A stretch of 64,000 nt of DNA from Candidatus Marinacidobacterium sp. (GCA_965220965.1 CBDCRI010000001.1:64001-128000); one strand, 5' to 3'; shown: positions 2,881 to 56,929, counted from the first letter of the stretch. The notes: a model not told the origin generated them from the sequence alone. Numbers and translations are program-made.

Positions 2881-3642
2881 CTACGGAGAGAGCGAGATCA
2901 CGTCGGCGGCCTCGACCACCTTGACCGGCTTTCCTAGCATTCTGGAAGTGTCCACGGTCAGGACGTCGCCGACGGCGACGTTGGTGGACGGCGTCACCAC
3001 CTCGTAGGCCTGGCCGCCGTAGGAGAAGCTGACCAGGGTGGCCGGCACGTGGCGCGTCTGCGTGGCCTGCTGCTGGCCGGGGGGGCAGGGGTCGCCGTCG
3101 CGCCGGGCCATGTGGTCCTGCTCGGCCAGGCGCCGGTTGCGGCGCCCCTCCTGCATCTGGTCGCCGACCACCGCGCCGACCGCGCCGCTCAGCACCCGGC
3201 CGACGCCGTCAACGCCGGCGGCGTTGGCGACCGCCACGCCGGCCCCGCCGCCGAGCACGCGCCCGACCCAGTTGCGGGCCAGGCGCTCCTCGGCGATGCC
3301 GGCCAGCCGCTCGTCCCTGACGCAGACCGTCGAGTGCACCGCGCGGTCCACCAGCTGCGCCCCCTCGACGCGCAGGCGGACCTGCTCCGCGCTGGCGGCC
3401 ACCGGGGCCATGGCGGCGCCGGCCACGGTCATTGCGGCGACCGTCGCCTTGACGTTGGCCGCCGGGAGCGCGCTGACCTTGGCGGCCAGGGCGCTGGCGC
3501 GCCGCTCCACCTCATCGGCCGCCGCGGCGAGCTTCGGGTCGACCGCCGCGCGCATCTGGCGGATGACCGCCCTCGATCGGCCGCGCAGCTCCGCCATCTC
3601 CTGGCGGGCGAATGCCTTAAGGTCTTCTCGGGACATGCTCAT
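2881..3642 (-). CDS. Glycine-zipper 2TM membrane protein (YcfJ-like)
   Basis: GRVLGGGAGVAVA...LSGAVGAVVGDQMQ glycine zipper followed by a short beta segment. GGAGA RBS; TATAAT at 3679-3684. Confidence 0.65.
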   Translation of the reverse strand: MSMSREDLKAFARQEMAELRGRSRAVIRQMRAAVDPKLAAAADEVERRASALAAKVSALPAANVKATVAAMTVAGAAMAPVAASAEQVRLRVEGAQLVDRAVHSTVCVRDERLAGIAEERLARNWVGRVLGGGAGVAVANAAGVDGVGRVLSGAVGAVVGDQMQEGRRNRRLAEQDHMARRDGDPCPPGQQQATQTRHVPATLVSFSYGGQAYEVVTPSTNVAVGDVLTVDTSRMLGKPVKVVEAADVISLSP

Positions 3643-3735
3643 GGCCATTCTCCGTGTTCGATTTGTGGGCACGGCTCCATTATAGCGGCCCGGCGGGATT
3701 CGGGTCCCCGAACGCCGCTTGCCGGGCGACGGCCC

Positions 3736-4098
3736 CTACCAGGGGAAGACGGTCTCGAACAGGCGGCCGTTGCCCCACGCGACCGCAAGGTGCCACAGCG
3801 TGAGCACCCCCTGCTGCACCAGCAGCAGGGTCCACAGGTTGTTGAGAACGATGCAGACCAGGTGCACCGGGAAGCGGTGGGAGGGCGCGGTGAGCAGGGT
3901 CTCGTCGAAGGCGGGCACGAACCAGCGCGCCGGCGCCCATTGCGGCGTGGTGGAGCGCACCATCCGGTCCACGAAGTCCGCCCCTCTCCGCATGTCCCGG
4001 CCCTCGCCGGGCCTCACCGTGCCCGCCTGGGCGGCGCCCCCGTTCGCCACGGGGGCGTTGCGAGCCTGCGCGACCTGCCGTTCCCCGTCGTTCATCAT
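3736..4098 (-). CDS. Small hypothetical membrane protein
   Basis: Hydrophobic C-terminal half; TGGTATAAT promoter at 4130-4138 upstream. Confidence 0.55.
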   Translation of the reverse strand: MMNDGERQVAQARNAPVANGGAAQAGTVRPGEGRDMRRGADFVDRMVRSTTPQWAPARWFVPAFDETLLTAPSHRFPVHLVCIVLNNLWTLLLVQQGVLTLWHLAVAWGNGRLFETVFPW

Positions 4099-4129
4099 GG
4101 CGTTCCGTCCGCCGCTTGCTTGCGGTTGG

Positions 4130-4221
4130 ATTATACCATGCCCCGAAAGCCGCCTCGGCAGCGCGGCGCGGCCCGGCGGAAGGCCCAGCCGGGGCCGGGC
4201 CGGGGGCGGCGCAGCTATAAT
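4130..4221. promoter_or_regulatory. Divergent pair of consensus -10 boxes
   Basis: TGGTATAAT on minus (4130-4138) and TATAAT on plus (4216-4221), between divergent genes. Confidence 0.6.
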
Positions 4222-4290
4222 GGCCGCAGGCCCGGGGAGAGCGGCGGGGCGCCCCGGGGCAGGCCGACGCCCCGCGCCAAGGAGGAACCC

Positions 4291-5118
4291 ATGGCCCATC
4301 GGATCGCGACGCCGGACGGCACCGAGGTCGCCGCCCTGGACCGGCTGTCCGGGGAGGCCCTGTGGAAGTGCCTGGTCACCCGGCCGGAAGGGGCCTGCGG
4401 CCCGCCCGCGGCGGTGGAGGCGATCGGCGGGGAGGGCGGCTTCCGCGCCTTCGAGTCGGCCGGCCGCGGCGCGGTCCGCGACGTCACCGACGAGTACGTG
4501 CGCGACGCCGCCGGGTTCTCGGCCGCGGTCCGCGCGGTCCGCGCGGCGTTCCCGGGCATCACGCTCAGCTACCGGATCGGCGGCGAGGGACTGCGGCACG
4601 GCCAGGCCGCCATTCCCGCCGGGCACGAGGCCTGGCGGCGGCTGCACTTCGCGTCGATCTTCGCCGACGAGAAGCTCTGCCGGCGCCTGCCCCTGCACCT
4701 CGCCGATTGCGTCCGCTTCGACGGGGCGGCCGGCGCGCTGGCGCTGCAGCTGTCGGACGACGACCTGCTGCGGGCGGCGCACGGCGAGCTGTACGCGGCG
4801 GTCGAGCGGGCCGTTCGGCAGGAGAGGCGGGTCGAGCGGGCGAAGGGCGCCCGCCAGGCGGCGCGCTCGGCCCCGCTGAGCCCCGAGTTCAGCGACCGCG
4901 TGCATGGCCTGGTGGAGGCGGCGCGCCGGTCCCTGCCGAGGCTGCGCGGCGAGGTCGCGCAGGCGATCGAGGCGGTGGCCGCTCCCCTGGGGTTCGCCCT
5001 GCGGCCCCACCCCGGCGACCCGCACCGGACGCTGCTCGCCGAGGGCGGCGGCCCCGCCGCGGCGACGGCCGCAGGCCCCGGGGGCAGGGCCGCCGGGCCG
5101 ACGGGCGGACCGCCCTAG
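4291..5118 (+). CDS. Hypothetical protein
   Basis: AAGGAGG RBS then ATG 4291; coding-like GC3. Confidence 0.7.
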   Translation: MAHRIATPDGTEVAALDRLSGEALWKCLVTRPEGACGPPAAVEAIGGEGGFRAFESAGRGAVRDVTDEYVRDAAGFSAAVRAVRAAFPGITLSYRIGGEGLRHGQAAIPAGHEAWRRLHFASIFADEKLCRRLPLHLADCVRFDGAAGALALQLSDDDLLRAAHGELYAAVERAVRQERRVERAKGARQAARSAPLSPEFSDRVHGLVEAARRSLPRLRGEVAQAIEAVAAPLGFALRPHPGDPHRTLLAEGGGPAAATAAGPGGRAAGPTGGPP

Positions 5119-5180
5119 CGGCCCGCAACGCCCCAAGGGGGGCAAGCGCGCGACCGCGCACAGGAGCCAAGGAGAGCGGC

Positions 5181-5639
5181 ATGGGCACCAGAAGCCGAAT
5201 CGGGAGGGAGCTTCCCGATGGCCGGATCGAGCACGTCTTCTGCCAGTTCGACGGCTACCCGCAGCGTCCCGGGGCCGGCTGGGTGCTGCTGAACCACTTC
5301 CAGGACCCCGACAGGGCCGCCCGGCTGATCGACGGGGGCAGCCTCGCCTCGATGACCGACCCGGAGGCCAGGCCCAACCCCTCGCGCCACCCACCGGGCT
5401 CGGCGCTGTGGAGGGGTCCGGCGACGGCCTTGGACCGCGACGACCTGGTCTCGCGCAAGGAGGACGCGGAGTTCCTGTACCTGCTGACCCGGGAGGGGCG
5501 GTGGCTGTGCCACGGACGCTGGCCCGGGGAGGGCTGCGCGTGGCGCGACCTGGCGCAGTGCATCGAGCGCCTCGACGCCGAACGGCGGGCGGCGCGGGCG
5601 CCTTCGGCCGCGGGGCGCGGCGGCCCGTCCTCGAGCTAG
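5181..5639 (+). CDS. Conserved phage-type hypothetical protein (MGTRSxIG...CxxDGYP family)
   Basis: AAGGAG RBS. MGTRSRIG..DG.IEHVFCQFDGYP..G..LLNHF..LIDGG motif recalled from phage proteins. Confidence 0.7.
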   Translation: MGTRSRIGRELPDGRIEHVFCQFDGYPQRPGAGWVLLNHFQDPDRAARLIDGGSLASMTDPEARPNPSRHPPGSALWRGPATALDRDDLVSRKEDAEFLYLLTREGRWLCHGRWPGEGCAWRDLAQCIERLDAERRAARAPSAAGRGGPSSS

Positions 5640-5706
5640 GGGCGTTGCGGGGCGCGCCGCCGGGCGCGGGGTCTATCGGGTCAGGGCAATGGTATAATAC
5701 GAAGCC

Positions 5707-6207
5707 ATGGACGCCCGCCCGAGAAACGCCGCCCCGCCCCCGCGGCCGCTGGCCCGCCTGCTGCTTCGGCTGGCCGGCCTGTGGCCCTTCCAGGACACCC
5801 TGCCGGCCGCGCGCAACGGGGCCGGGCTCTACGCCTGGCGGCTGTTCGCGCTGCCCCCGGAATGGTCGGCCCGGGTGGGGAACGTGAAGCTGGTCAACTA
5901 CCAGTCCGGCGACGGGCCGACCCCGCACTGCCACCCCTGCTGGATGCTGTGCGTCACGCTTTGCGGGTCGGCGGTGGAGACGCTGTTCCGGCGCGGCCCC
6001 GACGGGCGCCCGCAGGTGGCCGAGCGCAAGCCGCTCGCCCGCATCCGCCTGTACAGGGCGGACGCCGAATTCCTGCACACCATCAACGACCCGCAGGGCC
6101 TCTGGACGCTGGCCGTGCGCGGTCCCAGGCGGCGCGCCTGGGGCTTCGTGCTCGCCGACGGCACCTGGGTCCACCACCTCGACCACAAGCGCGAGGCCGC
6201 GGCCTGA
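5707..6207 (+). CDS. Phage-type cupin-like protein
   Basis: PHCHP..W....L.G...E, H.I, WTL..RGPRRRAWGF motif series. TGGTATAAT ends 8 nt before the ATG. Confidence 0.65.
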   Translation: MDARPRNAAPPPRPLARLLLRLAGLWPFQDTLPAARNGAGLYAWRLFALPPEWSARVGNVKLVNYQSGDGPTPHCHPCWMLCVTLCGSAVETLFRRGPDGRPQVAERKPLARIRLYRADAEFLHTINDPQGLWTLAVRGPRRRAWGFVLADGTWVHHLDHKREAAA

Positions 6208-6570
6208 CCGCCCTCCGGGAGCGGCCTGCGCCATGAGCCACGGAGTCCGCCCTTCCGGCCCCTTCCAAGCCGCGGCGCATGCGGCCTCAGCGCGGCCTTG
6301 CGGGCGCGTGGGGATAGGGCATGGCGGCTCTAGCCCCGCCGGGTTACATTGGACGTCCCAACAGGATCCAACTGCGGGCGCCGGAGCCTTGAATGCGGAT
6401 TGATCGATGCACGGCCACAGCACCCGAAAGGCGGCGGATGTCGTGGGCATGACGCCAAGCCATGCGCGCCGCACAAGGCGTGGCCGAAGGCCGTTCCGGG
6501 CAATGCTCCGGCTGCCGGCCTGCACGGCGCACCGCATGAACCAAGAAGGCGGACCTGAAGGGCAGCGCTG

Positions 6571-6957
6571 ATGACCGCGGCCCGAACGCCCCCGCAGGCT
6601 CGGCAACCCCGTGCGGAAGGTGCTCGGGAGCCGCGGCGACCGCCTGCGCTGACCCGTGAGGACAGGCTGAGCCTGGCGTTTCACGTGCAGGTGGCGAAAC
6701 TCCTCAGGGCGGGCCCGGAGCCGGTCGTCGCCAAGGCGAGGGCGAACGCCAGGCGGCTTGCGCGCCAGCATCCGCAATTGGCGGGCGATTTCGACCGCTG
6801 GCAGGCATGGCTGTCGCTGCCGCCTGACGACCTTTGCGCACGCATCACCGCCGAAACGGAGGAGGCCATCTGGATGCGCCACATCACCGTCTTTGCGGGC
6901 GTCCTGAGCCCGAGCGAGCGCAACGCGATCATTCGGCGGCAAAGGGCCGCGCCGTGA
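6571..6957 (+). CDS. Putative antitoxin partner of the nucleotidyltransferase
   Basis: REDRLSLAFH..VAKLL..KARAN..W..W..FAGVLSPSER; GTGA-coupled to the next gene. Confidence 0.6.
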   Translation: MTAARTPPQARQPRAEGAREPRRPPALTREDRLSLAFHVQVAKLLRAGPEPVVAKARANARRLARQHPQLAGDFDRWQAWLSLPPDDLCARITAETEEAIWMRHITVFAGVLSPSERNAIIRRQRAAP

Positions 6958-7523
6958 GGCGGGAGCAGTTCAACCACGTGGTCCGCGCCGCCGGTGCGGT
7001 GCTCGGCCATGACGAGGTCCTGGTGGTGGGCAGCCAGGCCATCCATGGCTCGCTCGCGAAGGCCGCCTTGCTTGGCGACTTCTCCATGGCCGTTGACATT
7101 GCGGCTTTCGAAGACGCTGACGGACGGCTGGCCGACCTCATCGACGGGGCGCTTGGGGAGGGCAGCCTTTTCCACGAGACGCATGGCTACTACGGGCATG
7201 GCGTTGCCAAGACCACGGCGCGGCTTCCGGAAGGCTGGCGTCATAGGCTGGTTGCCCACAACGCCCCGGACACCAATGGAATCACCGCGCTCTGCCTCGA
7301 CCCCCATGATCTTTGGCTGTCAAAAGCGTATGCCGGCAGGGACAAGGACATCCCTTTCTGCAATGCGATGTTCGCCGAGGGCCTGGTTGATCCCGCCAAC
7401 CTGCGCAAGCTGCTGCCGTTGATGGGCGAGCTGCCCAACGCCGTCGGCGCCCGGATCGAGGCCATGATCGGCGCCATGGAGGCCGAGCGGGCGAGGCGGG
7501 TAGGGGGGCCGAGTCCAAAGTGA
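6954..7523 (+). CDS. DUF6036-type nucleotidyltransferase (putative toxin)
   Basis: HVVRAAG..VLVVGSQAIHG..SMAVDI..FHETHGYY..LPEGWRHRL..HDLWLSK..GRDKD. Confidence 0.75.
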   Translation: MRREQFNHVVRAAGAVLGHDEVLVVGSQAIHGSLAKAALLGDFSMAVDIAAFEDADGRLADLIDGALGEGSLFHETHGYYGHGVAKTTARLPEGWRHRLVAHNAPDTNGITALCLDPHDLWLSKAYAGRDKDIPFCNAMFAEGLVDPANLRKLLPLMGELPNAVGARIEAMIGAMEAERARRVGGPSPK

Positions 7524-8079
7524 GGCGGGGGCTAGCCTCGGATGCAAGGGGGCGGGGCTGCATTGACGCCGCCGTGCCCCCGTCCGGCTTGGGTGCGCGT
7601 CGCACGGTCGCGCCAACCCCGATTCAAGGGCGCGTGGGGTCGGGGCAGGGCGTGCCGAGCAAGCGGCACTTGAAGCGAAGCGGGTTTGTTCAATAGCTTA
7701 GATTTTTCAGAGGGTTACGGCCATGCAACGCCTAGGCTCACTGGGATGAGCTTCCCCGGAATGGCCGTCGGGCAATGCCAAGGACGTGGCGCTCGGGGCG
7801 GCTCGACGCCCATGGGCCGTTTGGAAAGCCGTTGCCTGCTTTGGGTGGAATTCACGAAGGGTGCAGCCGTTGTTGGCTTCCACGGTCCAGGTTTTTTTTG
7901 CGCCTATGTCGGGGGCGGGCGAAAAGGGGGGCCTTCTGCCGCCGGTGCGTGGCGGGCATGCCGAAGCCCTCGCAGGGCGGCACTCGGAAATGGCTGAACT
8001 GCGCGGTCCGAGCCTCGCCGAGGAGGTTGGCGTTTGCGGGCTCGCGTTCCGTGGCCTTCCATTCACGCCGCGCTCACTT

Positions 8080-8230
8080 CAAGCCCCTCGTGGGCCCTTG
8101 GATTGGGGCCATCCGAGGAGCTTTTGTGGCGTGATGCTGAACCTGCGGCGCGGAAGGCAACTTATGGGCAAAAGCAAGACGCTGTTTTATATGGGCAAAA
8201 GGCGAAATCCCACCCAGATAAAGTAACGGC
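8080..8230 (+). repeat. Structured non-coding element, copy A
   Basis: Shares colinear blocks with 12933-13082: CAAGCCC, GGATTGG, CTGAA, GCGGAAGGCAA, CTGTTTTATATG(G/C)GCAAA, CCACCCAGA, AGTAACGGC. Confidence 0.75.
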
Positions 8231-8300
8231 TTGCTTAACTGCTTCCGCGGACGTCGCTGGGCAGGCGGTGGCGACTAAAGGAAGCCGCCTCCCTCGCGCC

Positions 8301-8897
8301 TCATGGGGAGGGCCTCCTCCGAGAGTACGCACTGTCCGGGTTGTAGCGGTGCACCGGGTCATTCGGGAACGGCCGGGGACGGGTGCATGGATGCGGCTTT
8401 TCCGGGTCGTCCGCCCACTGGTTCAGCCATGGCCCGCATCCGTAGGCGCAGCCGTCAAACGCGTTCCAGAAGCATCGCGCCACCTCGAAGATCGGAAGCT
8501 GCGTGCCGCCGATCAGGCCGGGGAACACGTACTTCTTGCGCATGCCGCTGAAGGCCCAGGACAGGGACGCCTTGTCGAGGTCGGAGAACTCGCCCGTGCG
8601 GAACGCCCGCATCAAGTCCTCAGGATGCGCCCTCCAGTCGTGGTTCATGCCCGCGCACTGCTTCGCCATGAAGGTGTTAAGGCTCCACAGCGGATCCCTC
8701 TCCGGATCGGCGCCGAGCGCCTGCTTGAGAAGCGGGTGGTCGAAGTCCTCCAGCGGCCTGAGCGGCAGGAACATGACCGGGTCGTCGCAGGAGAGGCAGC
8801 CGTCGGGCAGCAGGCACTCATCCACCAGTCCGCCGGGCGGAATGTACGGCACCTCCCAATCGGGCGTGGGAGGGGGGCTTCCGCGGGCTCGGCTCAT
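8301..8897 (-). CDS. Hypothetical Cys/Trp-rich protein, copy 2 (candidate AbiEii partner)
   Basis: 198 aa; ATGA overlap with copy 1. Confidence 0.8.
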   Translation of the reverse strand: MSRARGSPPPTPDWEVPYIPPGGLVDECLLPDGCLSCDDPVMFLPLRPLEDFDHPLLKQALGADPERDPLWSLNTFMAKQCAGMNHDWRAHPEDLMRAFRTGEFSDLDKASLSWAFSGMRKKYVFPGLIGGTQLPIFEVARCFWNAFDGCAYGCGPWLNQWADDPEKPHPCTRPRPFPNDPVHRYNPDSAYSRRRPSP

Positions 8898-9490
8898 GGG
8901 GAGGGCCTCCTCCGAGAGTACGCACTGTCCGGGTTGTAGCGGTGCACCGGGTCATTCGGGAACGGCCGGGGACGCGTGCATGGATGCGGCTTTTCCGGGT
9001 CGTCCGCCCACTGGTTAAGCCATGGACCGCATCCGTAGTCGCAGCCGTCAAACGCCTTCCAGAAGCATCGCGCCACCTCGAAGATCGGAAGCTGCGTGCC
9101 GGCGATCAGGCCGGGGAACACGTACTTCCGGCGCATGCCGCAGAAGGCCCAGGACAGGGACGCCTTGTCGAGGTCGGAGAACTCGCCCGTGTGGAACGCC
9201 CGCATCACGTCCTCCGGATGCGCCCTCCAGTCGTGGTTCATGCCCGCGCACTGCTTCGCCAGGAATCCGTTCAGGCTCCACAGCGGATCCCTCTCCGGAT
9301 CGGCGCCGAGCGCCTGCTTGAGAAGCGGGTGGTCGAAGTCCTCCAGCGGCCTGAGCGGCAGGAACATGACCGGGTCGTCGCAGGAGACGCAGCCGTCGGG
9401 CAGCAGGCACTCATCCACCAGTCCGCCGGGCGGAATGTACGGCACCTCCCAATCGGGCGCGGCAGGGGGGTTTCCGCGGGCTGGGCTCAT
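8894..9490 (-). CDS. Hypothetical Cys/Trp-rich protein, copy 1 (candidate AbiEii partner)
   Basis: 198 aa; the ATG overlaps the stop of the AbiEii-like gene. Confidence 0.8.
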   Translation of the reverse strand: MSPARGNPPAAPDWEVPYIPPGGLVDECLLPDGCVSCDDPVMFLPLRPLEDFDHPLLKQALGADPERDPLWSLNGFLAKQCAGMNHDWRAHPEDVMRAFHTGEFSDLDKASLSWAFCGMRRKYVFPGLIAGTQLPIFEVARCFWKAFDGCDYGCGPWLNQWADDPEKPHPCTRPRPFPNDPVHRYNPDSAYSRRRPSP

Positions 9491-10341
9491 GGGCTTGGCC
9501 CCCTGCCCGGCCGGGGCTTCGAAGGCATGGCGCCCCCGAGGCCGTCGTCGTTCGCGTAGTCCTCCGACTGGTCCGCCGGCACCGCAACGGGCAGCAGCCC
9601 GATGTCCCGGGCGGACACGGCATCGCCAATCCTGGATGCGATGCCCGGCAGGGGCACCGCCCACTTGGGGTCGACGATGGGCTTGTTGTCCCGTTGGTGC
9701 AGGTCGTGCGGCGCCTTTCGAAAGTTGGTGGCGATGCGGTCCTTGGCATCAGGCGGCATGACTTCCAGAACGCGGGCCAGAGGGCCAGGCGCCAACGCGG
9801 CGCTGACGCAGATGTCGTAGCAATCGCGTATGGGGATCGGCTCCTTGCCGTCATCTTTCCTTTTGTCAGCCACATACGCTCGGCCCGCGATCTTGCCCAG
9901 GAGCGTTTCCGTTATGGTGGCGGCGCGGATTCCGGTTCCGTTGACGATTTCGCGCATCGGCACGCGAGGGTCGGAGTAATGCATGTCAGCAATGGACCAT
10001 GGGGTCTTATCCGCGCACCATCCTTCCATGAACAGGCTTCTCGCCCCCAGGTTCAACCGGTCCGTTTCGACGCTTGCCCCCACCTCAATGATGGCGTCGT
10101 AGAGCATTGCGTAAAGGAGCCTTCCCTTTTCCGCGTAGGCAGCCCGAAGCAGATCGTTTGCAATGAAGAAGTCCAAGTCCGTTGAAAGCCGGTGGTCCCA
10201 TCGGGCCTCAAGAACGGTTCCGCCGCCCAAGGCCACGTTGCCCTCCGGAAAGACGGACAGCATGGCACTGGACAATTCCGCGAACGATTCGCGCATCCGC
10301 TCCGGCAGTTCGACGTTGACTGTTTCAAGGGCCAACGGCAC
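9487..10341 (-). CDS. AbiEii/AbiGii-family nucleotidyltransferase toxin
   Basis: LGGGTVLEARWDHRLSTDLDFF, K..R, RDCYDI. Start uncertain (GTG 10341 or TTG 10335). TACAAT at 10375-10380. Confidence 0.85.
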   Translation of the reverse strand: MPLALETVNVELPERMRESFAELSSAMLSVFPEGNVALGGGTVLEARWDHRLSTDLDFFIANDLLRAAYAEKGRLLYAMLYDAIIEVGASVETDRLNLGARSLFMEGWCADKTPWSIADMHYSDPRVPMREIVNGTGIRAATITETLLGKIAGRAYVADKRKDDGKEPIPIRDCYDICVSAALAPGPLARVLEVMPPDAKDRIATNFRKAPHDLHQRDNKPIVDPKWAVPLPGIASRIGDAVSARDIGLLPVAVPADQSEDYANDDGLGGAMPSKPRPGRGPSP

Positions 10342-10799
10342 ACACTCCACTCTTTTGAAATGGCTGATGCTTGGATTGTACCCTGTGTTGCCGCTTTTCG
10401 CCGCCCCCTCCCAGCATCGAGGGACTCGCGGATGCTCGGAGGGGCAAGCCAGCCTTCGCCCAGTGCTCCTTGACCTTCCGCCCCTTCGTCCGGACGGACA
10501 TGGGCGGAAAGCTTCGTGGCGCCGCGAAAGCCGAAAGCGGCTCCTTCTTTGTGCGCTCCACCCAAAACAGGGTGACGGGTTCAAATCCTTGAGGCTTTGT
10601 CGTGGCTGGCCTCAACTCACTCCGCCAAAACGCATTCCGGCCGCCCCTCCTCGGCAGCGGCCCGTCGCACAATGCGCCCGACCGAGACGCCCGCATCACA
10701 TCGGTGCTGCGGGAGAGGCCGCCAATGCGGCAGCAAAACCCAACGCGAAATCAATGGGATGACGGAGTCAGAACGGATTGGAGGCAAGCGCGGCTGCGC

Positions 10800-12188
10800 C
10801 TATGGACCGCGGTGGTGGGTGAGCCGCAACGGGGGCGGCGGCAGCTTGGGCGGCGGGGGAGGGACGGCATCGCCCGTGACGGACGCCTTGCCGGCGAACG
10901 CGCGCACGGCGGCGTCGATGCGCCTGAACCGGCCCAGATCGCCTGCGGTCAGCTCCCCTTGGCGCACAAAGTCCCAACCCTTGGGGCTGCCAATGGTCAG
11001 GAAGCGCCGGCCGGCCTCGTCGAGCGCCGCCTTGCGCCGCAACTCCCGCAGCAGGCTGTCCAGCCGAAGCCTGCAAATCCACATTGCGTCGCGGGCCTCC
11101 TGGCCAGGCCCGTCCAGCGCATCGCGCGCGCCCTCGGCAAGCCGCTCGAGCATCGGGGCGTGCAGTGCGCGCAGGGCTTGGGCCAACGCGTCCGCCGTGT
11201 CCGCTTGGGCGAGCGTCGGGCCCAGGGCGTCGCCGGGCTCGATGTCGGCGGGGGCCGCTGAAGGCGGCATTCTCCTGCGGCGGCGAAGCCTGGGCAGCAT
11301 CTCGACGAAGTCCGTCCCCAAGCAGGCCAAGGCGACCAGAAACGCGCCCACGTCGAGCCCTCGCGTCCGCAGGGCGCCCGAGGCCACGGCCTCCAGCGCC
11401 CCGGCAAGGCCGCCGGGGTGCGCCGCCGCCGGGCCGCCCGTCCCGGCCTCGAAGTCCGCGAGGCCCTCGATGGCGTCAACAAGCCCGGAGGAGATCGTGC
11501 CGTGCATGGCGCGGGCCTCAGGGTCGCGGCTCTTCGGCAAGCCTCCGGGCAACTCCCCCAAGTAGGTCGACAGCCGCCCGTCCAAGTCGTGCTCGAGAAG
11601 CGCCTCAAGCCGGGACAGCAGCAGCCCCTCGCCCACCGCCTGCGGACTGACCGCTCCCGCTCCGGCGGCCCGGCGCGCCCAGAGGGCATCCAGAAGGCCC
11701 CGCAACAGGAACAGGGCCCGCCCGGCCCACAGGTCCTTGGCCCCACTCCACCTGCGCTGCGGCCCGCGGGCGAGCGCCGCCTGCTGAAGACCCTGCGGAT
11801 CGTCATCGGAGCCGTCGTCGGGGCCGACCAAGGCGGCCACCCAGTGCCGGACGCAGTCCGGGGCCTGGCGTTGGCAAAGCGCTGGAGAGGCCGATGGAAT
11901 CGGCGCCATGATCTCAGCGAGGGAGGCGCCCTGACGCAAGCTGGCCTCCACGCCCATCGCCCAAACGTCCGCCAGCCGGTCGCAGGCCCGTTCGCGGGCC
12001 GCTTCCGGCGCGGCGGGCTGGGCCTTGCGGTAGTCCTCCGCGATCTCGGCGCACTCGATCCACAGCGCCTCCGGGTAGCGGTCCGGCCCGATGGGCGCCC
12101 AGCGCCAGCGGGAGGCTGAGGGCGGACCCGAGCGGCGCAGCGCCTCGCCCATCTGGGCCAGGGCGTCGCTCAGGCGTGAGTCGCGCAT
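10800..12188 (-). CDS. Protein containing a DotL/IcmO all-alpha-domain-like segment, no ATPase motifs
   Basis: DLWAGRALFLL..LSTYLGELPG..EARAMHG aligns with DMWKGRASAML..LRRYLAELPN..EAVRQHG of the IcmO at 56930. Confidence 0.65.
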   Translation of the reverse strand: MRDSRLSDALAQMGEALRRSGPPSASRWRWAPIGPDRYPEALWIECAEIAEDYRKAQPAAPEAARERACDRLADVWAMGVEASLRQGASLAEIMAPIPSASPALCQRQAPDCVRHWVAALVGPDDGSDDDPQGLQQAALARGPQRRWSGAKDLWAGRALFLLRGLLDALWARRAAGAGAVSPQAVGEGLLLSRLEALLEHDLDGRLSTYLGELPGGLPKSRDPEARAMHGTISSGLVDAIEGLADFEAGTGGPAAAHPGGLAGALEAVASGALRTRGLDVGAFLVALACLGTDFVEMLPRLRRRRRMPPSAAPADIEPGDALGPTLAQADTADALAQALRALHAPMLERLAEGARDALDGPGQEARDAMWICRLRLDSLLRELRRKAALDEAGRRFLTIGSPKGWDFVRQGELTAGDLGRFRRIDAAVRAFAGKASVTGDAVPPPPPKLPPPPLRLTHHRGP

Positions 12189-12261
12189 GCGTCACGCCTC
12201 CCCGTCGGGGTGGACCAAGGCCGCCCGGCGGGCTTGGGTTCGACAGGGTTTGACGTCCAGC

Positions 12262-12504
12262 TCACAAATCCCCGTTTTTTCTCAGGAATTGAATCCAGCG
12301 GACGGTGACGATGATCCAGGTCATCACGTTGACCAGCAGCACCACAAAAACACCGCCTGCAATGAACTGCCAAACCTCAAGGTCGCCGAACGCGAAACCG
12401 AAGGAGGCGATCACGGCAAATCCCGCCAAGGCGTCCCGAAAGGCCGGGGCGTAGGTGTGCCAATGCGCGCGGTACAGGAAGACCACCGCTTTCAGCAACT
12501 CCAA
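12262..12504 (-). CDS. Small membrane protein
   Basis: 80 aa with two hydrophobic segments; TTG start after a purine-rich RBS. Confidence 0.55.
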   Translation of the reverse strand: MELLKAVVFLYRAHWHTYAPAFRDALAGFAVIASFGFAFGDLEVWQFIAGGVFVVLLVNVMTWIIVTVRWIQFLRKNGDL

Positions 12505-12525
12505 TTCCTGCTCCCTGCGGGCTGC

Positions 12526-12819
12526 TCATGGCCGGACGCATTTGCCGCCGGCAAAACGGGATTCCGGCCGCCCATCGGCTCCGGCCTTGCGCAAGCTTTC
12601 GGCGGTCGGCGCCCCTTCGGCCAATGACACGTCAAGCCCCACGGGACCGCCCTCGAAGATGCAGGTTGGCGCAAGGCCCCGCTCCAGAAGCGGCGCAACC
12701 GCTTGGCCGGCGGGGCCTCGGATGTCGAGGTCCGGGAGCGGGAGGCCGCCGAGCATGGCGGCGGGGAGGCCAGCCGGCAGCCACCGCAGCCTTGCGGTCA
12801 TCAGGCTAGAGGCGTTCAT
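12526..12819 (-). CDS. Hypothetical protein
   Basis: ATG 12819 lies downstream of TATAAT (12860-12865, minus). Confidence 0.4.
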   Translation of the reverse strand: MNASSLMTARLRWLPAGLPAAMLGGLPLPDLDIRGPAGQAVAPLLERGLAPTCIFEGGPVGLDVSLAEGAPTAESLRKAGADGRPESRFAGGKCVRP

Positions 12820-12932
12820 GGACAGGCGCGTGTTCCGCTCGGCGCTTGAAACGCTCCGTATTATACCCCACTTGCCTGATTCGCCTCTCCGTGCCGGGCT
12901 AAGGCGTTGGCCGGAGGGGGCGGGGATGCGAC

Positions 12933-13082
12933 CAAGCCCGCGGGCGCCTTGGGATTGGAAATAAAAAGGGGGGGGTACGGCAATGTACTGAAACCGCTGG
13001 GCGGAAGGCAATGTTTGGTCATTCTCAACTTACTGTTTTATATGCGCAAATTCGCGTTTTGCCACCCAGAATCAGTAACGGC
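12933..13082 (+). repeat. Structured non-coding element, copy B
   Basis: Diverged direct repeat of 8080-8230 with nested inverted repeats. Confidence 0.75.
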
Positions 13083-13292
13083 CTGGGAGTTTTCCAATGG
13101 TGGGGCGAAACGCCAGACGCCCCTTGGCGCTCGAGGAATTTGGGGGAGGCGCCCCTTCGAGACGTGGGCGGGCACGCCTTGCGTGCGGCTGCGCAGCCTG
13201 GCATGCTGCCTCCTCAAGAAGCCGCCATGAGCAGGATGGCTTGTTCACCTTACTCTCCGTCCGTGACGATGCGCGCCCCACCCGACAACGAA

Positions 13293-13529
13293 ATGTCCCG
13301 CCCCCCTGCATCCGGGCAGGCCGTTCGCGAGTTTGAAGCGGCGCACAAACGACACGTCATGCAAGTCGTGGCCGATGCCGCAGGCCCCATGCCGCATGGG
13401 TGGAACTGGGAACGACTGCTTCGCCAAGCTGACGAGGCGTTGGCCGAGGAAACCCTTCAAAAGCATGTGTCATCGGGATTCAGCGCCTTTCTCCACCAGC
13501 GCGCGGCCGAAGAGGCGATGAAGGAATAG
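13293..13529 (+). CDS. Small helical protein, putative antitoxin (start uncertain)
   Basis: Stops 2 nt before the PIN-like gene. Confidence 0.5.
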   Translation: MSRPPASGQAVREFEAAHKRHVMQVVADAAGPMPHGWNWERLLRQADEALAEETLQKHVSSGFSAFLHQRAAEEAMKE

Positions 13530-13531
13530 CC

Positions 13532-14485
13532 ATGCGACCGGAGCGCCCCAACAGTGCGCCCCGCCTGACCTGCGAGACAACGCTGGCCTCAGTGCCGAGC
13601 ATTCGCGCCTTCTGGGCAACCCTGCTTGAGGACATAGGGCAGCCCTACACGCTGGTGCCAACCGTCGCCGATGAGGTTCTGCGGCGCGAACGCCTGAACG
13701 CGACCCATGAATGGGAGCGACGCCTCAAGTGGCTGAACCGAGAGCATCCGCAGGCGTCTTGGGGAAGGACCGACATCCGCTGCTTGGCCACCCTGGCAGG
13801 CGCGACGGCACGAGATCACCTTCGCAAGCAGATGCAAATCCGGGAAGGCCCCTACCACATCGATCAAGCATCCCATCGCGAAAGGCAGGATGTGGTTGAA
13901 CTGGAGTCCCGCATCTCTGATGTCATGGACGACAGGATGTTCGACCAGGAGTCCAAGAACTGGCTGGCCGACCGAGAGATCGTCATTCAGGCCATGGCGC
14001 GCGGATACGACATTCTTGCGACCAACAACGTCCGAACCATCACCCATTCAATCTTCCGCCACTGGATCGCCAAAGGGGAAGGCGCCAGCCTTGGCTTGAG
14101 CACGTCCATCATGGAGCCGCCCCAAGCGGAGGAGGCGCTTCGCCTCGGCCATGACAAGCCCCTGGAGTGGGCCGGCCACATGGCCATGCGGGCTTGCGTC
14201 ACAAACCCTGACGATGAGCTGTCCGCTTTCGTTGAGATCGCCCGCTTCACCAAGGACTTTGGGGAGCGCGGCATGCTTCCAGTGGCCAACCTGATTCAAA
14301 AGGTTCTGGACAGCAAGGACACCCTGCAGGCGGGCCTCGACCAGCTCCGCAGGAGGGGCCTTAGTTCAGCCGGGCGTTACGAAGCGGCCAAAGCCGCTGC
14401 GGTGACCGGCGGGATTAGCAAGCAAACAGGGCTTCCCGCAGCGGATGTCGCCGCCTCCTCGAAAGCGCTCTCCCCATCCTTCTAG
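13532..14485 (+). CDS. PIN-domain-like protein (putative toxin)
   Basis: LTCETT, VPTVADEV, DREIVIQA, ILATNNVRT: spacing of PIN acidic and TxN motifs. Confidence 0.6.
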   Translation: MRPERPNSAPRLTCETTLASVPSIRAFWATLLEDIGQPYTLVPTVADEVLRRERLNATHEWERRLKWLNREHPQASWGRTDIRCLATLAGATARDHLRKQMQIREGPYHIDQASHRERQDVVELESRISDVMDDRMFDQESKNWLADREIVIQAMARGYDILATNNVRTITHSIFRHWIAKGEGASLGLSTSIMEPPQAEEALRLGHDKPLEWAGHMAMRACVTNPDDELSAFVEIARFTKDFGERGMLPVANLIQKVLDSKDTLQAGLDQLRRRGLSSAGRYEAAKAAAVTGGISKQTGLPAADVAASSKALSPSF

Positions 14486-14635
14486 AGCAAGGCGCACTGC
14501 GGATCCTGACTGACGCCCCTCCTGGCGCAGCGGGGCCTCGCAAACCGTCGAGCCGGCGGATGCACCGACCTCCAGCAGGCTCCCAACACAAACGGGAGCG
14601 CGGCCCTGCGGGGAGGCGCCCGGCGGCCCCGGCCC

Positions 14636-15781
14636 CTAGGGACTCGGCGCCGCGCGCCGGGGCAGCTTGGAGAGTCCGCTGCGCACCGCGGCCGCCGCGA
14701 TCTGGACCGCCATCTCCACCAGCTGGGCCAGCTGCTGCGCGATGTAGGCCTCCATCGTCGTCGGCGGCGGCTCCGGCAAGGGCGCGGGGCCGACCGCCTC
14801 CAGCACCTTGCCGGTCCGGTCCAAGGCCCGGCCGGCGCGCGACCTCAAGGCGTCCTCCGCCTGCTCCGACATCCAGGGACGCTCCGCCTGCCGGGCGACG
14901 TCCGCCCAGTGCAGGAGCCCGCGGACGTCCGCGGCCCTGCGGCGCAGGGTGGCGATGCGCCCGTCATGGGCGCCGATCGGCGCCCGCTTGAGCAGGGCCT
15001 CCAGCACCCCCTCCAGCTTCTCGATGCGCCTTTCCAGCTTCGCCGCGTCCCCCTTCAGGCCCTTGGAGTAGGCGGCCGCCGCGTCCTCCATGTCGTGCCG
15101 GACGCCCTCCAGCCGGGGGGCGACCTTGGCCAGCGCCGTTCCGGGCGCCTCCTGCAGCACGGCTTGCGCCCGCTGAGCCTTCGCGAGCCTTTCGTTGAGC
15201 CGCTCGCGCTCGACGCCGGACTCGGGCGGCGCGATGGAGGGCAGGTCGAGCGACTCGAGCTCGGCCGTGGCCTGCTCGACCAAGTCGTCGTCCCGCTGCG
15301 CCCGCTCGGCCGCGGTGGCCTTGGGCAGCCGGGCGGCGTCGACGCCGGCCCGCTCGGCCGCCTCCCGGTCCATGTGCCGCCGGTGCAGCGCCCGGTCCCC
15401 GTCCAGGTAGGCCTTGTGGGGGGCGCCGTCGTAGCGCACCCACTGGCCGCCCTCCGGCCACTGGCCGCACACGTAGTTCGGCTGGGCCCCCGGCCCCTCG
15501 CCGCTGATGTCGCCGTAATCCTCGACCGGCTCGCAGCCGTCGAGCCGGACCTTCATGCGGGGCCTTCCGCCCCCGCGCAGCACGGCCTCGAAAATCTGCT
15601 GGTGGGTCAGCATCTCGCCTTCCAGCGCCTCGACGGCCTTGCGGATCGGATGCCCAGGGCCGAACCGGTTGCTGCGCAGCCGGCTCACGACGCGCGCCCG
15701 CTCCACCGCGCCCCCGGGCTTCGACGCCCATTCGCGCATGCCCTGCGTGAACCTCTCCAGGTCCGCCTTGCCGCCGCTCAC
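14636..15781 (-). CDS. Hypothetical protein with coiled-coil C-terminal half
   Basis: 381-aa ORF, GTGA-coupled; ends RRAAPSP. Confidence 0.75.
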   Translation of the reverse strand: MSGGKADLERFTQGMREWASKPGGAVERARVVSRLRSNRFGPGHPIRKAVEALEGEMLTHQQIFEAVLRGGGRPRMKVRLDGCEPVEDYGDISGEGPGAQPNYVCGQWPEGGQWVRYDGAPHKAYLDGDRALHRRHMDREAAERAGVDAARLPKATAAERAQRDDDLVEQATAELESLDLPSIAPPESGVERERLNERLAKAQRAQAVLQEAPGTALAKVAPRLEGVRHDMEDAAAAYSKGLKGDAAKLERRIEKLEGVLEALLKRAPIGAHDGRIATLRRRAADVRGLLHWADVARQAERPWMSEQAEDALRSRAGRALDRTGKVLEAVGPAPLPEPPPTTMEAYIAQQLAQLVEMAVQIAAAAVRSGLSKLPRRAAPSP

Positions 15782-16878
15782 GGGGCCATCGCCTGCGGCT
15801 GGGGGGCGGTCGCCGCGGCGTCCATGCCGAGGCTCAGGGCGTCGCCGATGGGAGCGCCCATGGCGTGGATTGCGGAGAGCAGCTCGCTCGCCCCGTCGCG
15901 CGTCCTCGCGCAGCGCAGGGCGATCGGCGTGGCGAGGAAGTCCTGGGTGCGCCGCAGCCCGGCCAGCGGCGATTGGTGCCAGCGCTCGTCCAACCAGATC
16001 TTTTCGACTTTCGAGGGCGCCTCGCGGACCATCGCCGAGGTCATGTCGCTGTTCGTGCGCGGGCCCGCCGCCACCCGGAAGGCGGGCAGGGCGTGCAGCG
16101 TGACGTCATCGCGGTCGAGCATCTTCTTGAGCCGTCCGTTCCGGCGCTCGGCCGCCTCGCGCAGGGCCTGCGCCGGCGTGGTGCAGAGCCCGGAGTCGCG
16201 GTCGTAGCGGATCCACGCGGAGACGCAGGCATCCCGGCGGTAGCGCCCCTGGAAGACGGGCCTCAGGATCACGCCGCCGTAGCGGCCGCGCACCGAGGCG
16301 CGCTCGAGGAACGTCTGGATGCGCCCGCCGGCGACGAAGTCGGACTTGACCACGACCTTGGCCAGGTCCGGGCGCAGCACCACCGCGGAGAACCGGTAGC
16401 GCTCCCCGTGGCGGGCGGCGCGCCCCGAGGCGGGCGTCCCGTCCGGGCCCGGAGGCGCCGGGTCCGCGTCCTCCGCGCGCCATGCCGAGACGTCGAGGTA
16501 GCCGGTCCCGAACACGGGCAGCGGGTCGAGCTCGTCGCTGCGCAGCACCGACATCCAGCCGGCGCTGACCATCCCCGGCGCCTGCTCCGTGCAGCGCTCG
16601 CACAGCAGCACGCCGCGGGGGGCGGCGGCGCTGTTGTCGGGCGAGGCCAGGCAGGGGTTCTTGGCGCGCCGGCCGGTGTCGGCGAGGCGCTCCACGCTCG
16701 GCAGCTCGCCCTTGCCGCTCGCCACCTGCTTCCTCAGGAGGCCCGGAACCTCCAGCCGCACCGCCACCTGGTTGCCCATCGCGTCGACGCCGAAGGCCTC
16801 CCCGCGGGCGACGTCGTACCCGCGCGGGTAAACGACCAGGGAGCCGATCCTGCGGGGCTCGGCGGCGATCCCGCTCAT
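15778..16878 (-). CDS. Hypothetical protein
   Basis: ATG 16878 overlaps the upstream stop; globular composition. Confidence 0.75.
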   Translation of the reverse strand: MSGIAAEPRRIGSLVVYPRGYDVARGEAFGVDAMGNQVAVRLEVPGLLRKQVASGKGELPSVERLADTGRRAKNPCLASPDNSAAAPRGVLLCERCTEQAPGMVSAGWMSVLRSDELDPLPVFGTGYLDVSAWRAEDADPAPPGPDGTPASGRAARHGERYRFSAVVLRPDLAKVVVKSDFVAGGRIQTFLERASVRGRYGGVILRPVFQGRYRRDACVSAWIRYDRDSGLCTTPAQALREAAERRNGRLKKMLDRDDVTLHALPAFRVAAGPRTNSDMTSAMVREAPSKVEKIWLDERWHQSPLAGLRRTQDFLATPIALRCARTRDGASELLSAIHAMGAPIGDALSLGMDAAATAPQPQAMAP

Positions 16879-20819: not shown

Positions 20820-21304
20820 GCGGGGAAGCGCCTGGGCAGGCCCTCGGCCGGGGCCTCGGCCACGGCGTCGAGGAAGGCGCCGAAACGGTAGCTGCGCGGC
20901 GCCTGCGGGTCGCCGCGCCGCGCCCAGTAGCGGCGCACCGCCCACATGCGGAAGGCCGTGTTGAGGTACAGGGCCAGGCAGGCGGCCATGCAGGCGACGC
21001 CGCAGAGCAGCGCCAGCACGCTGCCGGCGAGCATCGAGGCGAGGGCCAGCAGCAGCGCCGCGCCCCCCTGCAGGCAGGCGGTCCGCCCGGCGTTGGCGTA
21101 GCGCAGGCGCAGCTCCGGCTCCGCCGGCATTTGCTCGGCGTGGACCGGCACCTCGAAGTCGAGGACCGCGGAGGGGCGCCTGAGGAACGCGGCGACGGCC
21201 AGGCCGCGGCCCTGCAGCGCCTGGCGGACGGCGCCGTAGCTTCGGTGCGCCTCGCGCATCCCCTCGACGGTGCGCCGCGTCTGCTTGAACGGCCGCCACC
21301 TCAC
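20816..21304 (-). CDS. IcmV/TraX-like membrane protein
   Basis: 162 aa with two TM segments followed by AFRMW; immediately upstream of dotA/traY. Confidence 0.6.
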   Translation of the reverse strand: MRWRPFKQTRRTVEGMREAHRSYGAVRQALQGRGLAVAAFLRRPSAVLDFEVPVHAEQMPAEPELRLRYANAGRTACLQGGAALLLALASMLAGSVLALLCGVACMAACLALYLNTAFRMWAVRRYWARRGDPQAPRSYRFGAFLDAVAEAPAEGLPRRFPA

Positions 21305-55204: not shown

Positions 55205-55535
55205 CGGCAAGCTCCGCATGACCGTGGACCTCGAGCACTCGCTCCCGACGCTCGAGTTCCTGCGCGGGCTCGGGCGCCACGAGCGGACCGCCTTCGTGCG
55301 CGTGGCGCTCATCGCCGCGCACCGCCGCGTCAGCCGGCTCGACGAGCGGTCCCTGTGGCCGGGCGCCATCCTCGGGGAGGGCGGCGGCGCGCCGGAGGGA
55401 CGGCCGCGGCCGGTCGGGGGCGGCGACGCCCCGCCCGCCCCGGCGAGCGACCGGCCCCGCCCGGCGCCGGCGCCCGCGGCGTCCGGCGGCATGCCGGGCG
55501 ACGTCGCCCAGGTCCTCAGCCGCTTCGTGCAGTAG
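55197..55535 (+). CDS. ParR/StbB-like adaptor
   Basis: Small gene overlapping the parM end. Ribbon-helix-helix-like N-terminus, disordered linker, C-terminal amphipathic helix. Confidence 0.6.
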   Translation: MADGKLRMTVDLEHSLPTLEFLRGLGRHERTAFVRVALIAAHRRVSRLDERSLWPGAILGEGGGAPEGRPRPVGGGDAPPAPASDRPRPAPAPAASGGMPGDVAQVLSRFVQ

Positions 55536-56878
55536 TGAGCGGGCGCCGGGACCCGTCCGAAGCCGGCGGCGACGCCGGCGTCTTCTTCCTGCTGCTCGCG
55601 CTGGCGGCCTGCGCGGCGGCGCTGTTCGCCTGGGACGCGCTGTGGGCCGAGCGCTTCGGCGCCTGGCGGGCGCTGCGCCTGGCCCAGCTGGCGGCGCTCG
55701 GGCCGCTGCTGCCGGACGCCTACTGGGCGTTGTTCGACCTGCCCCCCGCCGACCGCGTCGCGGCGGCGCTGGAGCGCGCCGCCGCCGTGCCCGGCGAGGG
55801 CCAGCGGGAGCAGGCGGCGCTGTTCCGGGCGCGCATCGACCGGGCCTTGCTGCCGCCCGTCTGCCTGCTCGCCGGCCTGCCGTTCGTGGCGCTGGCGCTG
55901 GCGCGCTGGCGGGCGGCGGAGCGCGTCCGCGAGCGCTTCGACGACGCGGACGGGTACCTGGAGGCCCAGGCGGCGCTGCACCCGCACCTCGCCCCGCTGT
56001 CCGGCGAGCGGCCCCACCGGGAGCCGCTGAAGTTCGACCGGGAGCGGCCCAGCGTCCACGCCAAGTGCGTCAACCCCCTAGACTTCGCGCGCATGCGCCC
56101 GCCGCTGGGCCTGGAGGGGGAGGCCGACCGCGCCATCCTCGAGGGCGACGACGACTTCGACGAGGCGCTGGCGGAGCGCTGCTTCGCCCGGCAGTGCGGG
56201 CCGCCGTACGCGGGCCTCGGCGCCTGGGACGGCTGCGCGCAGCACGCCTTCGAGCTGCTGCTGCCCGCCCAGGCGCTGCACCCGGAGCGGATGCTGCCGG
56301 AGATCCGGGCGCTGCTGGCGGACGGCGCGGACGGCGGCAGCGACGCGGCGCGCGCGCTCGCCGAGGCGCTGCGCGCGCGCCGCGGCAAGGCCCCCCGCGA
56401 CCTGCTCAGGGACCCCGCGCTGGCCGCCGCCCTGCGCCTGCGCGAGGCCGAGATGGTGATGGAGGCGCACGGGTTCGTGCTGACCGGGCTCATGAGCCTG
56501 CTGGAGGAGGCCCGGCAGGGCGGCGTGGTGCTGATCCACAGCCTGCGCCGCAAGCTCAAGCTGGAGGACCGCACCATGTGGTACGCTCTCTCCTCCGTCG
56601 GGCGCCGCGTGGCGTTCGCGGAGGGCGCGGGGCCGTTCGCCCACTGGCTGGTGGAGCGCTCGATCGGCGTCCACCTGCCGTCGCCGATGACGGTGCCGGA
56701 GGTCGGGCGCGCCGTGCGCGCGCTGCGCGAGCAGATCGAGGGGCCGAAGCCCAGCGCGGCGCCGCCCATGCCGCAGCCCGAGCGGATCCCGGGGCTGGGG
56801 TTGATGGGGGGTGCGGACCGCTTCGCCAGCCTGGATGAGTTCCTGGAGCGGGACAGGCGGGAGGGAGGAACGAGATGA
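55535..56878 (+). CDS. icmP: IcmP/DotM (TrbA) coupling-complex protein
   Basis: FARQCGP, HGFVLTGLMSLLEEARQGGV, LKLEDRTMWYAL..VGR..EGAGPFAHW..E. Confidence 0.9.
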   Translation: MSGRRDPSEAGGDAGVFFLLLALAACAAALFAWDALWAERFGAWRALRLAQLAALGPLLPDAYWALFDLPPADRVAAALERAAAVPGEGQREQAALFRARIDRALLPPVCLLAGLPFVALALARWRAAERVRERFDDADGYLEAQAALHPHLAPLSGERPHREPLKFDRERPSVHAKCVNPLDFARMRPPLGLEGEADRAILEGDDDFDEALAERCFARQCGPPYAGLGAWDGCAQHAFELLLPAQALHPERMLPEIRALLADGADGGSDAARALAEALRARRGKAPRDLLRDPALAAALRLREAEMVMEAHGFVLTGLMSLLEEARQGGVVLIHSLRRKLKLEDRTMWYALSSVGRRVAFAEGAGPFAHWLVERSIGVHLPSPMTVPEVGRAVRALREQIEGPKPSAAPPMPQPERIPGLGLMGGADRFASLDEFLERDRREGGTR

Positions 56879-56929
56879 ACGCACGCAAGGGACCGGCCCG
56901 CGGGGCGCCGGCGTAAGGGGCTCCCGGGC

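Follow-up and report, generated by a model that had tools for sequence, protein, structure and literature searches.

The 64,000-nt window analysed here, from Candidatus Marinacidobacterium sp. (GCA_965220965.1 CBDCRI010000001.1:64001-128000), comprises bases 64001-128000 of contig C2 in a two-contig genome of 3.25 Mb. C2 is 363,302 bp long with 73% G+C, and the other contig, C1 (2.88 Mb), is the chromosome. By its gene content, C2 is a large plasmid-like replicon, or megaplasmid, with Dot/Icm (type IVB) secretion genes. This content was read from a Pfam survey of open reading frames (ORFs) that a crude caller based on G+C phase had proposed (90 aa or longer beyond the window region), and small or atypical genes were possibly missed. 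Previously, a first-pass annotation had described two diverged copies of a ~150-nt hairpin element in the window, with compensatory changes and an embedded promoter-like hexamer pair. The present study reveals that the two stretches belong to a low-copy modular repeat family that occurs only on C2 and is non-coding and intergenic. Its members are four copies (A to D) and two solitary boxes (A' and E). They and their parts are as follows, in window positions unless C2 is named.

7816-7852, minus strand: solitary box A' (7828-7848) plus flank, from inverted-repeat and fuzzy/weight-matrix searches
7926-8236, plus strand: copy A, full unit of ~310 nt with modules M1, M2 and M3, delimited by BLAST against copy C
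7926-8045, plus strand: module M1, found in A and C only
8046-8151, plus strand: module M2, G+C-rich extended hairpin of ~105 nt, found in A, C and D and weakly in B
8160-8233, plus strand: module M3, A+T-richer, with invariant blocks, found in A, B and C
8182-8199, plus strand: invariant block CTGTTTTATATGNGCAAA of copy A, from a fuzzy genome search
8210-8230, plus strand: 21-nt box CCACCCAGATAAAGTAACGGC of copy A
8146-8254, plus strand: long hairpin of copy A only, from a DNA minimum-energy fold (30 pairs, -22.9 kcal/mol)
12918-13086, plus strand: copy B, a 3' partial copy with M3 and a weak M2-like part starting near 12892, from nhmmer, BLAST and the covariance model
13033-13050, plus strand: invariant block CTGTTTTATATGCGCAAA of copy B, from the fuzzy genome search
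13062-13082, plus strand: 21-nt box of copy B
C2 128641-128936: copy C, full unit, ~640 nt past the window end, from genome BLAST
C2 186005-186025: solitary box E, from fuzzy/weight-matrix searches
C2 350008-350112, minus strand: copy D, an internal partial copy (~105 nt of the middle, M2 alone), from nhmmer profiles

The colinear direct repeats reported at 8080-8230 and 12933-13082 are real. A repeat search of the window recovers them as a 63-nt pair at 8137-8199 and 12988-13050, 73% identical and spaced by 4851 nt, and a MAFFT alignment of A and B over about 210 nt has a mean column identity of 77%. When copy A was compared with the 3.25-Mb genome by BLAST, copy B was the third best of the 16 listed matches (71% identity over 97-98 nt, E = 1.5e-6), and the next genome match after it had an E value of 0.8. 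Copy C is 82.8% identical to A over 308 nt (E = 4e-89), with sharp borders on both sides and unrelated flanks. Since C aligns with A over this length, the unit measures ~310 nt and not 150 nt. The proposed ~150-nt element is thus indeed repeated, but it is merely the 3' half of the unit. Copy B shares only the 3' 150-180 nt, and nhmmer retrieves it with an E value of 7e-49 as a training member and of 4e-12 with a profile built from A and C.

The modules occur in different combinations: M1, M2 and M3 together in A and C, M3 with a weak M2 in B, M2 in D, and the box in A' and E. The first 67 nt of M1 differ by 2 mismatches between A and C, and nhmmer found no further convincing copy of M1 in the genome. 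On the 2.88-Mb chromosome, BLAST, nhmmer, fuzzy, weight-matrix and covariance-model searches detected no copy; all members lie on C2. A coding reading was rejected. Unlike the surrounding genes, neither 7450-8300 nor the region around B carries a codon-phase G+C signal, and the 45 mismatches between copies A and C show no period of three, with 19/14/12 in the three codon phases. The two share no conserved ORF, and an 11-codon ORF that both have is out of frame in B (sequence read by eye).

Within M3, copies A, B and C agree fully in blocks of 12, 5, 7 and 9 nt, whose intervening spacers vary in sequence and hardly in length. The layout is CTGTTTTATATG-N-GCAAA, then 10-11 nt, then the 21-nt box CCACCCANANNNRGYAACGGC, with the blocks the same in each of the three. 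A genome-wide fuzzy search found exact copies of the invariant block CTGTTTTATATGNGCAAA in A, B and C only, the next best site having 4 mismatches. Likewise, a position-weight-matrix scan gave the five box sites on C2 scores of 40-47 bits, compared with 23.9 for the runner-up anywhere in the 3.25-Mb genome. Around the box, A' and E share ~26 of 29 bases (printed sequences compared by eye), and A' and the right end of A make up an inverted repeat (37 nt, 73%) that joins 7816-7852 and 8206-8242. The box is non-palindromic; four of the five sites share one orientation, and the fifth is inverted beside A. Homology between A, B and C stops 3-6 nt past the box. Invariant blocks separated by variable spacers are the pattern expected of protein contacts, which would make M3 a candidate binding region.

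The hairpin that looks conserved, unlike the long hairpin of copy A discussed below, is M2. RNAalifold predicts 29 pairs for it, with 86% of the cells paired over the four copies. Changes on both sides affect six pairs, a number that 0 of 500 shuffles reach and that slid controls (0-3) do not. The pairs of A, C and D that depart from Watson-Crick pairing comprise 13 G-T and 0 A-C, which mildly favours the plus strand as the folding strand. The fold z-scores of M2 are -3.0/-3.2 in A, -1.5/-1.3 in C, -0.9/-1.2 in D and -1.3/+0.3 in B, and the M2 covariance model finds the four copies only, including a match in B at 12892-13010. Copy A alone has AGCTTTTGTG after the tip of its M2 hairpin, which looks terminator-like on the plus strand (8096-8127). 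This flag is not significant, as the region holds 3 such sites against 6.5 expected from shuffles.

The first-pass annotation had further stated that both copies fold in the same register and that their stem sequences differ while pairing is kept. The stems named for copy A are present in its minimum-energy fold, the long hairpin at 8146-8254. The shared register, however, does not hold: projected onto this hairpin, B has 12 of the 30 pairs broken (13 Watson-Crick and 5 G-T pairs are kept), and in C, 14 Watson-Crick pairs and 1 G-T pair are kept, 5 are unpaired and 10 gapped. The outer 3' arm of this hairpin falls beyond the homology boundary between the copies, and an 11-nt deletion in C takes out the TGGNCA hexamer together with half of the inner stem. 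Compared with dinucleotide shuffles, copy A folds better (z for RNA -0.78 on the plus and -3.21 on the minus strand; for DNA -2.72 and -2.59), but copies B (RNA +0.07 and -0.05; DNA +0.76 and +0.47) and C (+0.11 to +0.50) fold no better. As for the compensatory changes, 6 of the 30 pairs do change on both sides, including three consecutive pairs of B at the position of AAGCAAG/CTTGCTT. This number is reached by 4 of 500 shuffles, with 0-3 in slid controls. The changes are not robust, since three of them lead to G-U and the 3' arm is non-homologous. We also rejected, as a general rule, pairing of the 3' flank with the upstream arm, because it is no better than for G+C-matched random 30-mers: the DNA-energy percentile of the 30-nt flank against the upstream 75 nt is 6% for A, 8% for C, 80% for B and 96% for box E. 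The long hairpin is essentially copy A's own property. The case shows how an argument from compensatory changes between two copies may fall away when third and fourth copies come to light.

Searches for relatives elsewhere were negative. When 27 genomes from the family and 54 from the order were searched by DNA BLAST, only 25-66-nt G+C-rich matches with E values of 1e-3 or worse appeared, and the M2 covariance model found nothing in the same 54 order genomes. Rfam gave 0 matches in the whole window at gathering score; at E values up to 10, only chance-level matches appeared around A and C, the best at 0.26. Exact-pattern scans of genome, metagenome and viral contig collections yielded no relative, and the 14 viral matches to the box pattern were not similar beyond the box. 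The DsbA-like backbone neighbour of copy C had no close relative in the genome contig collection. Of 400 other genomes from the class, 14 have homologues of the KAP NTPase encoded next to C (27-46% identity), and the repeat element is absent from the 11 of these loci that were examined. Contigs assembled from four public sequencing runs over 5000-16000 carried either the same sequence or the paralogous copy C, and gave no informative alternative junction; the public runs listed for the stretch include none of RNA. The earlier proposal of a new repeat family therefore stands, with no Rfam match and no relative elsewhere. Because no relatives were found outside this genome, all inference draws on paralogous copies within one replicon.

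[quoted passage not shown] The neighbouring genes, and the secretion genes that lie in the window, are the following.

6834-7523, plus strand: DUF6036 nucleotidyltransferase gene, left of A (Pfam PF19502, E = 3.6e-9)
8301-8897 and 8894-9664, minus strand: two tandem paralogous genes, called from G+C at the three codon positions
9487-10584, minus strand: AbiEii-type toxin gene, between A and B (Pfam PF08843, E = 2.5e-10)
13532-14485, plus strand: gene downstream of B, paralogue of the gene downstream of D
18012-21299: DotA/TraY, a Dot/Icm gene of C2
56930-59329: coupling protein of the Dot/Icm set of C2, within a secretion-related stretch at 55355-59329

Copy A is surrounded by a 777-nt non-coding gap. 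To its right, a run of minus-strand genes (the tandem pair, the AbiEii gene and a gene for a 462-aa protein) points towards A, and the tandem pair, ending 65 nt from the copy, converges on it. Neither the tandem genes nor the 462-aa protein, also encoded between A and B, has a Pfam, PADLOC or NCBIfam match. Copy C begins 3-7 nt after the stop codon of a plus-strand DsbA-like gene and is 5.3 kb distant from the gene for the coupling protein. On the right side of C, the KAP NTPase gene, the plasmid SSB gene and further minus-strand genes all run towards it. The KAP-family P-loop NTPase (C2 128967-131163; PADLOC PDC-S20, E = 8e-100) directly adjoins the SSB gene on the same strand. Copy D sits 58 nt past a HipA-like gene, and box E lies between diverging Fic-domain and HipA-like genes. 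In three of the four copies, M2 is found ~60-250 nt past the stop codon of a neighbouring gene. A, C and D thus lie at gene ends with the adjacent genes converging, and B and E in divergent upstream regions, so that the family has no single relation to gene orientation.

Besides the secretion genes listed above, C2 encodes DotM, DotH/IcmK and DotB-like ATPases, as well as RepA_C and ParA. It has replisome genes of its own (DNA polymerase III alpha, two DnaB-like helicases and SSB), together with ribonucleotide reductases, RecJ, several DNA methylases and two CRISPR-Cas gene sets. Toxin-antitoxin type ORFs with Pfam matches comprise nine AbiEii, two HipA-like and two Fic, and one each of zeta toxin, RelB and HepT-like. 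Transposase and recombinase genes in the survey are limited to one ISL3 fragment and one tyrosine recombinase (~180.6 kb). None of four relaxase Pfam families was matched in the whole genome, the C2 survey turned up no relaxase, and an origin of transfer (oriT) could not be located on C2.

The first-pass annotation had also read the element, foremost, as a possible single-stranded DNA (ssDNA) promoter of the Frpo/ssi kind, with an ncRNA or a recombination site, both taken up further below, as its fall-backs. The TGGNCA-N17-TATATG pair behind this reading is present in both copies (8165-8193 and 13016-13044), exactly twice in the window and with 0 matches in 100 window shuffles; the two sites are homologous and are therefore not independent evidence. 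As the relevant parts of a published account describe them (PMC11541004), Frpo/ssi elements are recognised by similarity to known sequences (BLAST E of 1e-6 against five known elements), sit in the leading region directly upstream of genes that are all on the T-strand, present the -35, -10 and UP elements as duplex within a hairpin, and are active on ssDNA in experiments. Our element resembles them as a plasmid-borne non-coding repeat in several copies, on a replicon that has a type IVB secretion system with coupling protein and its own SSB (tail DDDLPF). The DNA of copy A, furthermore, is able to fold into a long, imperfect hairpin (z -2.6 to -2.7) with weak -35/-10-like hexamers. In contrast to Frpo/ssi, the hairpin is conserved neither in register nor in energy. 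Copy C has lost the -35-like hexamer by deletion, and in the DNA fold of A this hexamer, TGGGCA, does not pair with the 3' arm. Neither TATATG nor the TATAAA on the opposite strand (the latter read by eye) has the T of a -10 hexamer at position 6. No sigma-70 consensus promoter was found in 6500-14600 or around C. Such a consensus scan is appropriate here, because TTGACA and TAGAAT/TAGGAT are over-represented in the intergenic sequence of this genome.

The gene arrangement also speaks against an ssDNA promoter. Adjacent genes converge on A, C and D, B alone having genes that lead away, so the copies are not placed upstream of co-oriented genes, and A and C have no such gene in the reading direction. 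A promoter in the 5' arm of the hairpin would transcribe leftwards, which would be sensible only for B; from its geometry, it would there read into the minus-strand run 12504-8301. A blastn search (word size 11, E up to 0.01) with 315 nt of copy A against 72,556 PLSDB plasmids, which include F-like and IncI plasmids, found no match in any of them. As neither a relaxase nor oriT was located, the leading region of C2 cannot be defined. An Frpo/ssi-like promoter or primer site active on the transferred strand is thus highly improbable.

We tentatively favour, as a possible rather than a probable account, a mosaic intergenic element like REP/BIME, with a protein-binding box, at the borders of toxin-antitoxin and defence modules. 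REP/BIME of E. coli, RIME of rhizobia and BOX of pneumococcus, like the also mosaic ERIC repeat, are intergenic and non-coding, combine modules differently, and contain an imperfect palindrome able to form a stem-loop, often past gene ends. The present family shares the intergenic, non-coding, modular make-up and the frequent position past gene ends, and M2 is a candidate for such a palindrome. M2 would then act as a transcript-end hairpin that terminates or stabilises transcripts between accessory gene modules, and the 21-nt box would be a putative site for a sequence-specific DNA-binding protein encoded by the plasmid. The copies may have spread, been truncated and recombined while toxin-antitoxin and defence modules were shuffled. 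The roles of M2 and the box and the mode of spread are inferred from sequence.

Several observations weigh against this REP/BIME-like reading. The family consists of four copies and two solitary boxes on one plasmid, with none on the chromosome, whereas chromosomal copies of the classical REP/BIME, RIME and BOX families number in the tens to hundreds. Its unit is longer (~310 nt) and its copies are diverged (71-83%). A transcript-end role does not fit every copy, since B lies between diverging genes. The M2 structure was derived from the same four sequences on which the changes were later counted, A's M2 alone clearly beats shuffles, and the G-T excess of M2 may come in part from predicting the structure on the plus strand. 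Moreover, conservation among paralogues within one replicon could reflect gene conversion. If the REP/BIME-like reading is true, an ordinary kind of object, a dispersed intergenic repeat, occurs in an unusual place. The host plasmid is poorly understood: it is rich in defence and toxin-antitoxin genes, with type IVB secretion, replisome genes of its own and no recognisable relaxase. The repeats would then mark borders of accessory-module exchange, and the invariant 21-nt box would offer a handle for fishing out its binding protein.

Other explanations account for parts of the same data. A decayed element like a miniature inverted-repeat transposable element (MITE) would have the 21-37-nt box as its terminal inverted repeat and A plus A' (7816-8242, ~427 nt) as its most complete copy, with B, C, D and E as truncated copies or solo ends. 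It recalls MITEs such as Correia/NEMIS of Neisseria in its discrete short unit, in the sharp borders of A and C within unrelated flanks, in the existence of truncated copies and solitary ends, and in the inverted repeat at the ends of copy A, which is also the copy that folds best. However, A alone has an inverted partner, and the left border of the A/C homology (~7908-7926) lies inside, not at, the left arm of this repeat. On reading the flanks, no target-site duplication was seen. The Pfam survey of C2 shows no matching transposase, although the ends of the ISL3 fragment were not compared with the box, and the copies are few and only 71-83% alike. We consider this origin unlikely. Quite unlikely, too, is a structured non-coding RNA of ~300 nt transcribed from the plus strand, or a cis-antisense RNA running from M3 into the 3' end of the converging gene. 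Such an RNA would agree with the two-sided changes in M2, with its G-U but no A-C departures on the plus strand, with the 777-nt gap around A, and with the start of C so close to a plus-strand stop codon that it would be co-transcribed with that gene. Yet Rfam has no match even at E values up to 10, the copies have no consensus promoter or terminator in common, B and C fold no better than shuffles, and the 11-nt indel and the variable 3' arm would fall inside the RNA body.

A and B could instead be attL/attR-like borders of an inserted island, that is, attachment sites for recombination. An island that inserts at the 3' end of a tRNA or tmRNA gene duplicates the 3' part of its target, and here, similarly, a full copy is followed by a 4.7-kb set of accessory genes of lower G+C and then by a 3' partial copy in direct orientation, with homology ending sharply just after the box in A, B and C. 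Unlike in such islands, no integrase or recombinase was found in 8243-12917 (Pfam, PADLOC, NCBIfam), the only tyrosine recombinase of C2 lying at ~180.6 kb. A and B are only 71-77% alike with no long identical stretch, no partner copy exists for C, and by Rfam the unit matches no known RNA gene; an island border is very unlikely. We give equally little credence to the idea that the unit serves an unrecognised plasmid protein as an oriT-like nick region or as some other polar site of replication or transfer, for instance a fork barrier of the Ter kind. The non-palindromic box with one inverted site beside A would suit it, as would the position of C near the coupling-protein gene and the presence of a type IV secretion system without a known relaxase family. 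From the general course of conjugative transfer, leading-region genes would be expected to point towards oriT, as the genes right of A and C point towards the element. The total G-C skew, moreover, peaks at C2 74,005, between A and B. Against this, the genes left of A and C are not co-oriented, chance alone can well put four of five sites the same way round, and no known relaxase anchors an oriT. At third codon positions the skew peak moves to ~114 kb, so the 74-kb peak mostly reflects gene orientation. A bolder version can be framed, in which the box, with its neighbouring hairpins and the A+T-rich block, would be recognised or nicked by a DNA-processing protein of the megaplasmid that is still unrecognised. 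It could be an oriT-like site for a new kind of relaxase, since Dot/Icm genes and a coupling protein are present with none of four known relaxase families, or else a polar barrier to forks or transfer. Strand exchange where the DNA is cut would then account for the sharp loss of homology 3-6 nt past the box. The chance of this is slim at best.

Some further candidates were tried and rejected. A replication terminus or Ter site is not robust, as the total G-C skew peaks at 74 kb and the third-codon-position skew at ~114 kb. A generic dif pattern gave one good chromosomal site and none near the copies. For an integron attC, there is no integron integrase, the unit is too long, and the core-site pair was not seen (no formal attC model was run). 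A diversity-generating retroelement or retron is opposed by the lack of a reverse transcriptase in the Pfam surveys and by copy differences that are not confined to adenines (alignment read by eye).

Several minor observations were made along the way. The good dif-like site, ACTTCCGATAAGGAATCTTATGTTAAGT, lies at C1 1191100-1191127. The tandem gene pair at 8301-9664 is underlain by a tandem duplication at 8297-9189, noted on the contig as C2 72297-73504 (~600-615 nt, 95.6-97% identical). The gene downstream of B belongs to a two-gene module that recurs at 13290-14485, C2 350513-351596 and C2 187598-188772. It comprises a small protein with an E-x-AHKR-x-V motif (read by eye), followed by a 260-317-aa protein without family match. 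The large proteins of two of these modules are 38% identical (13532-14485 against C2 350814-351596, over 251 aa, E = 4e-54) and weakly similar to the third, and the module may be an undescribed toxin-antitoxin or defence pair. At 3700-5700, the codon-phase G+C signal changes frame several times inside long overlapping ORFs; these (3049-5118, plus strand, and 3736-6942, minus strand) have no family match and may be frameshifted or broken genes. The chromosomal SSB (C1 1057481-1058107) has two OB-fold (SSB) domains in one 268-aa open frame. Finally, diverged paralogous genes of ~400 aa, with 64-87% DNA identity and no Pfam match, form an array at C2 1-8000 and 339000-363302; since it occupies both contig ends, it is probably a single array across the junction of a circle.

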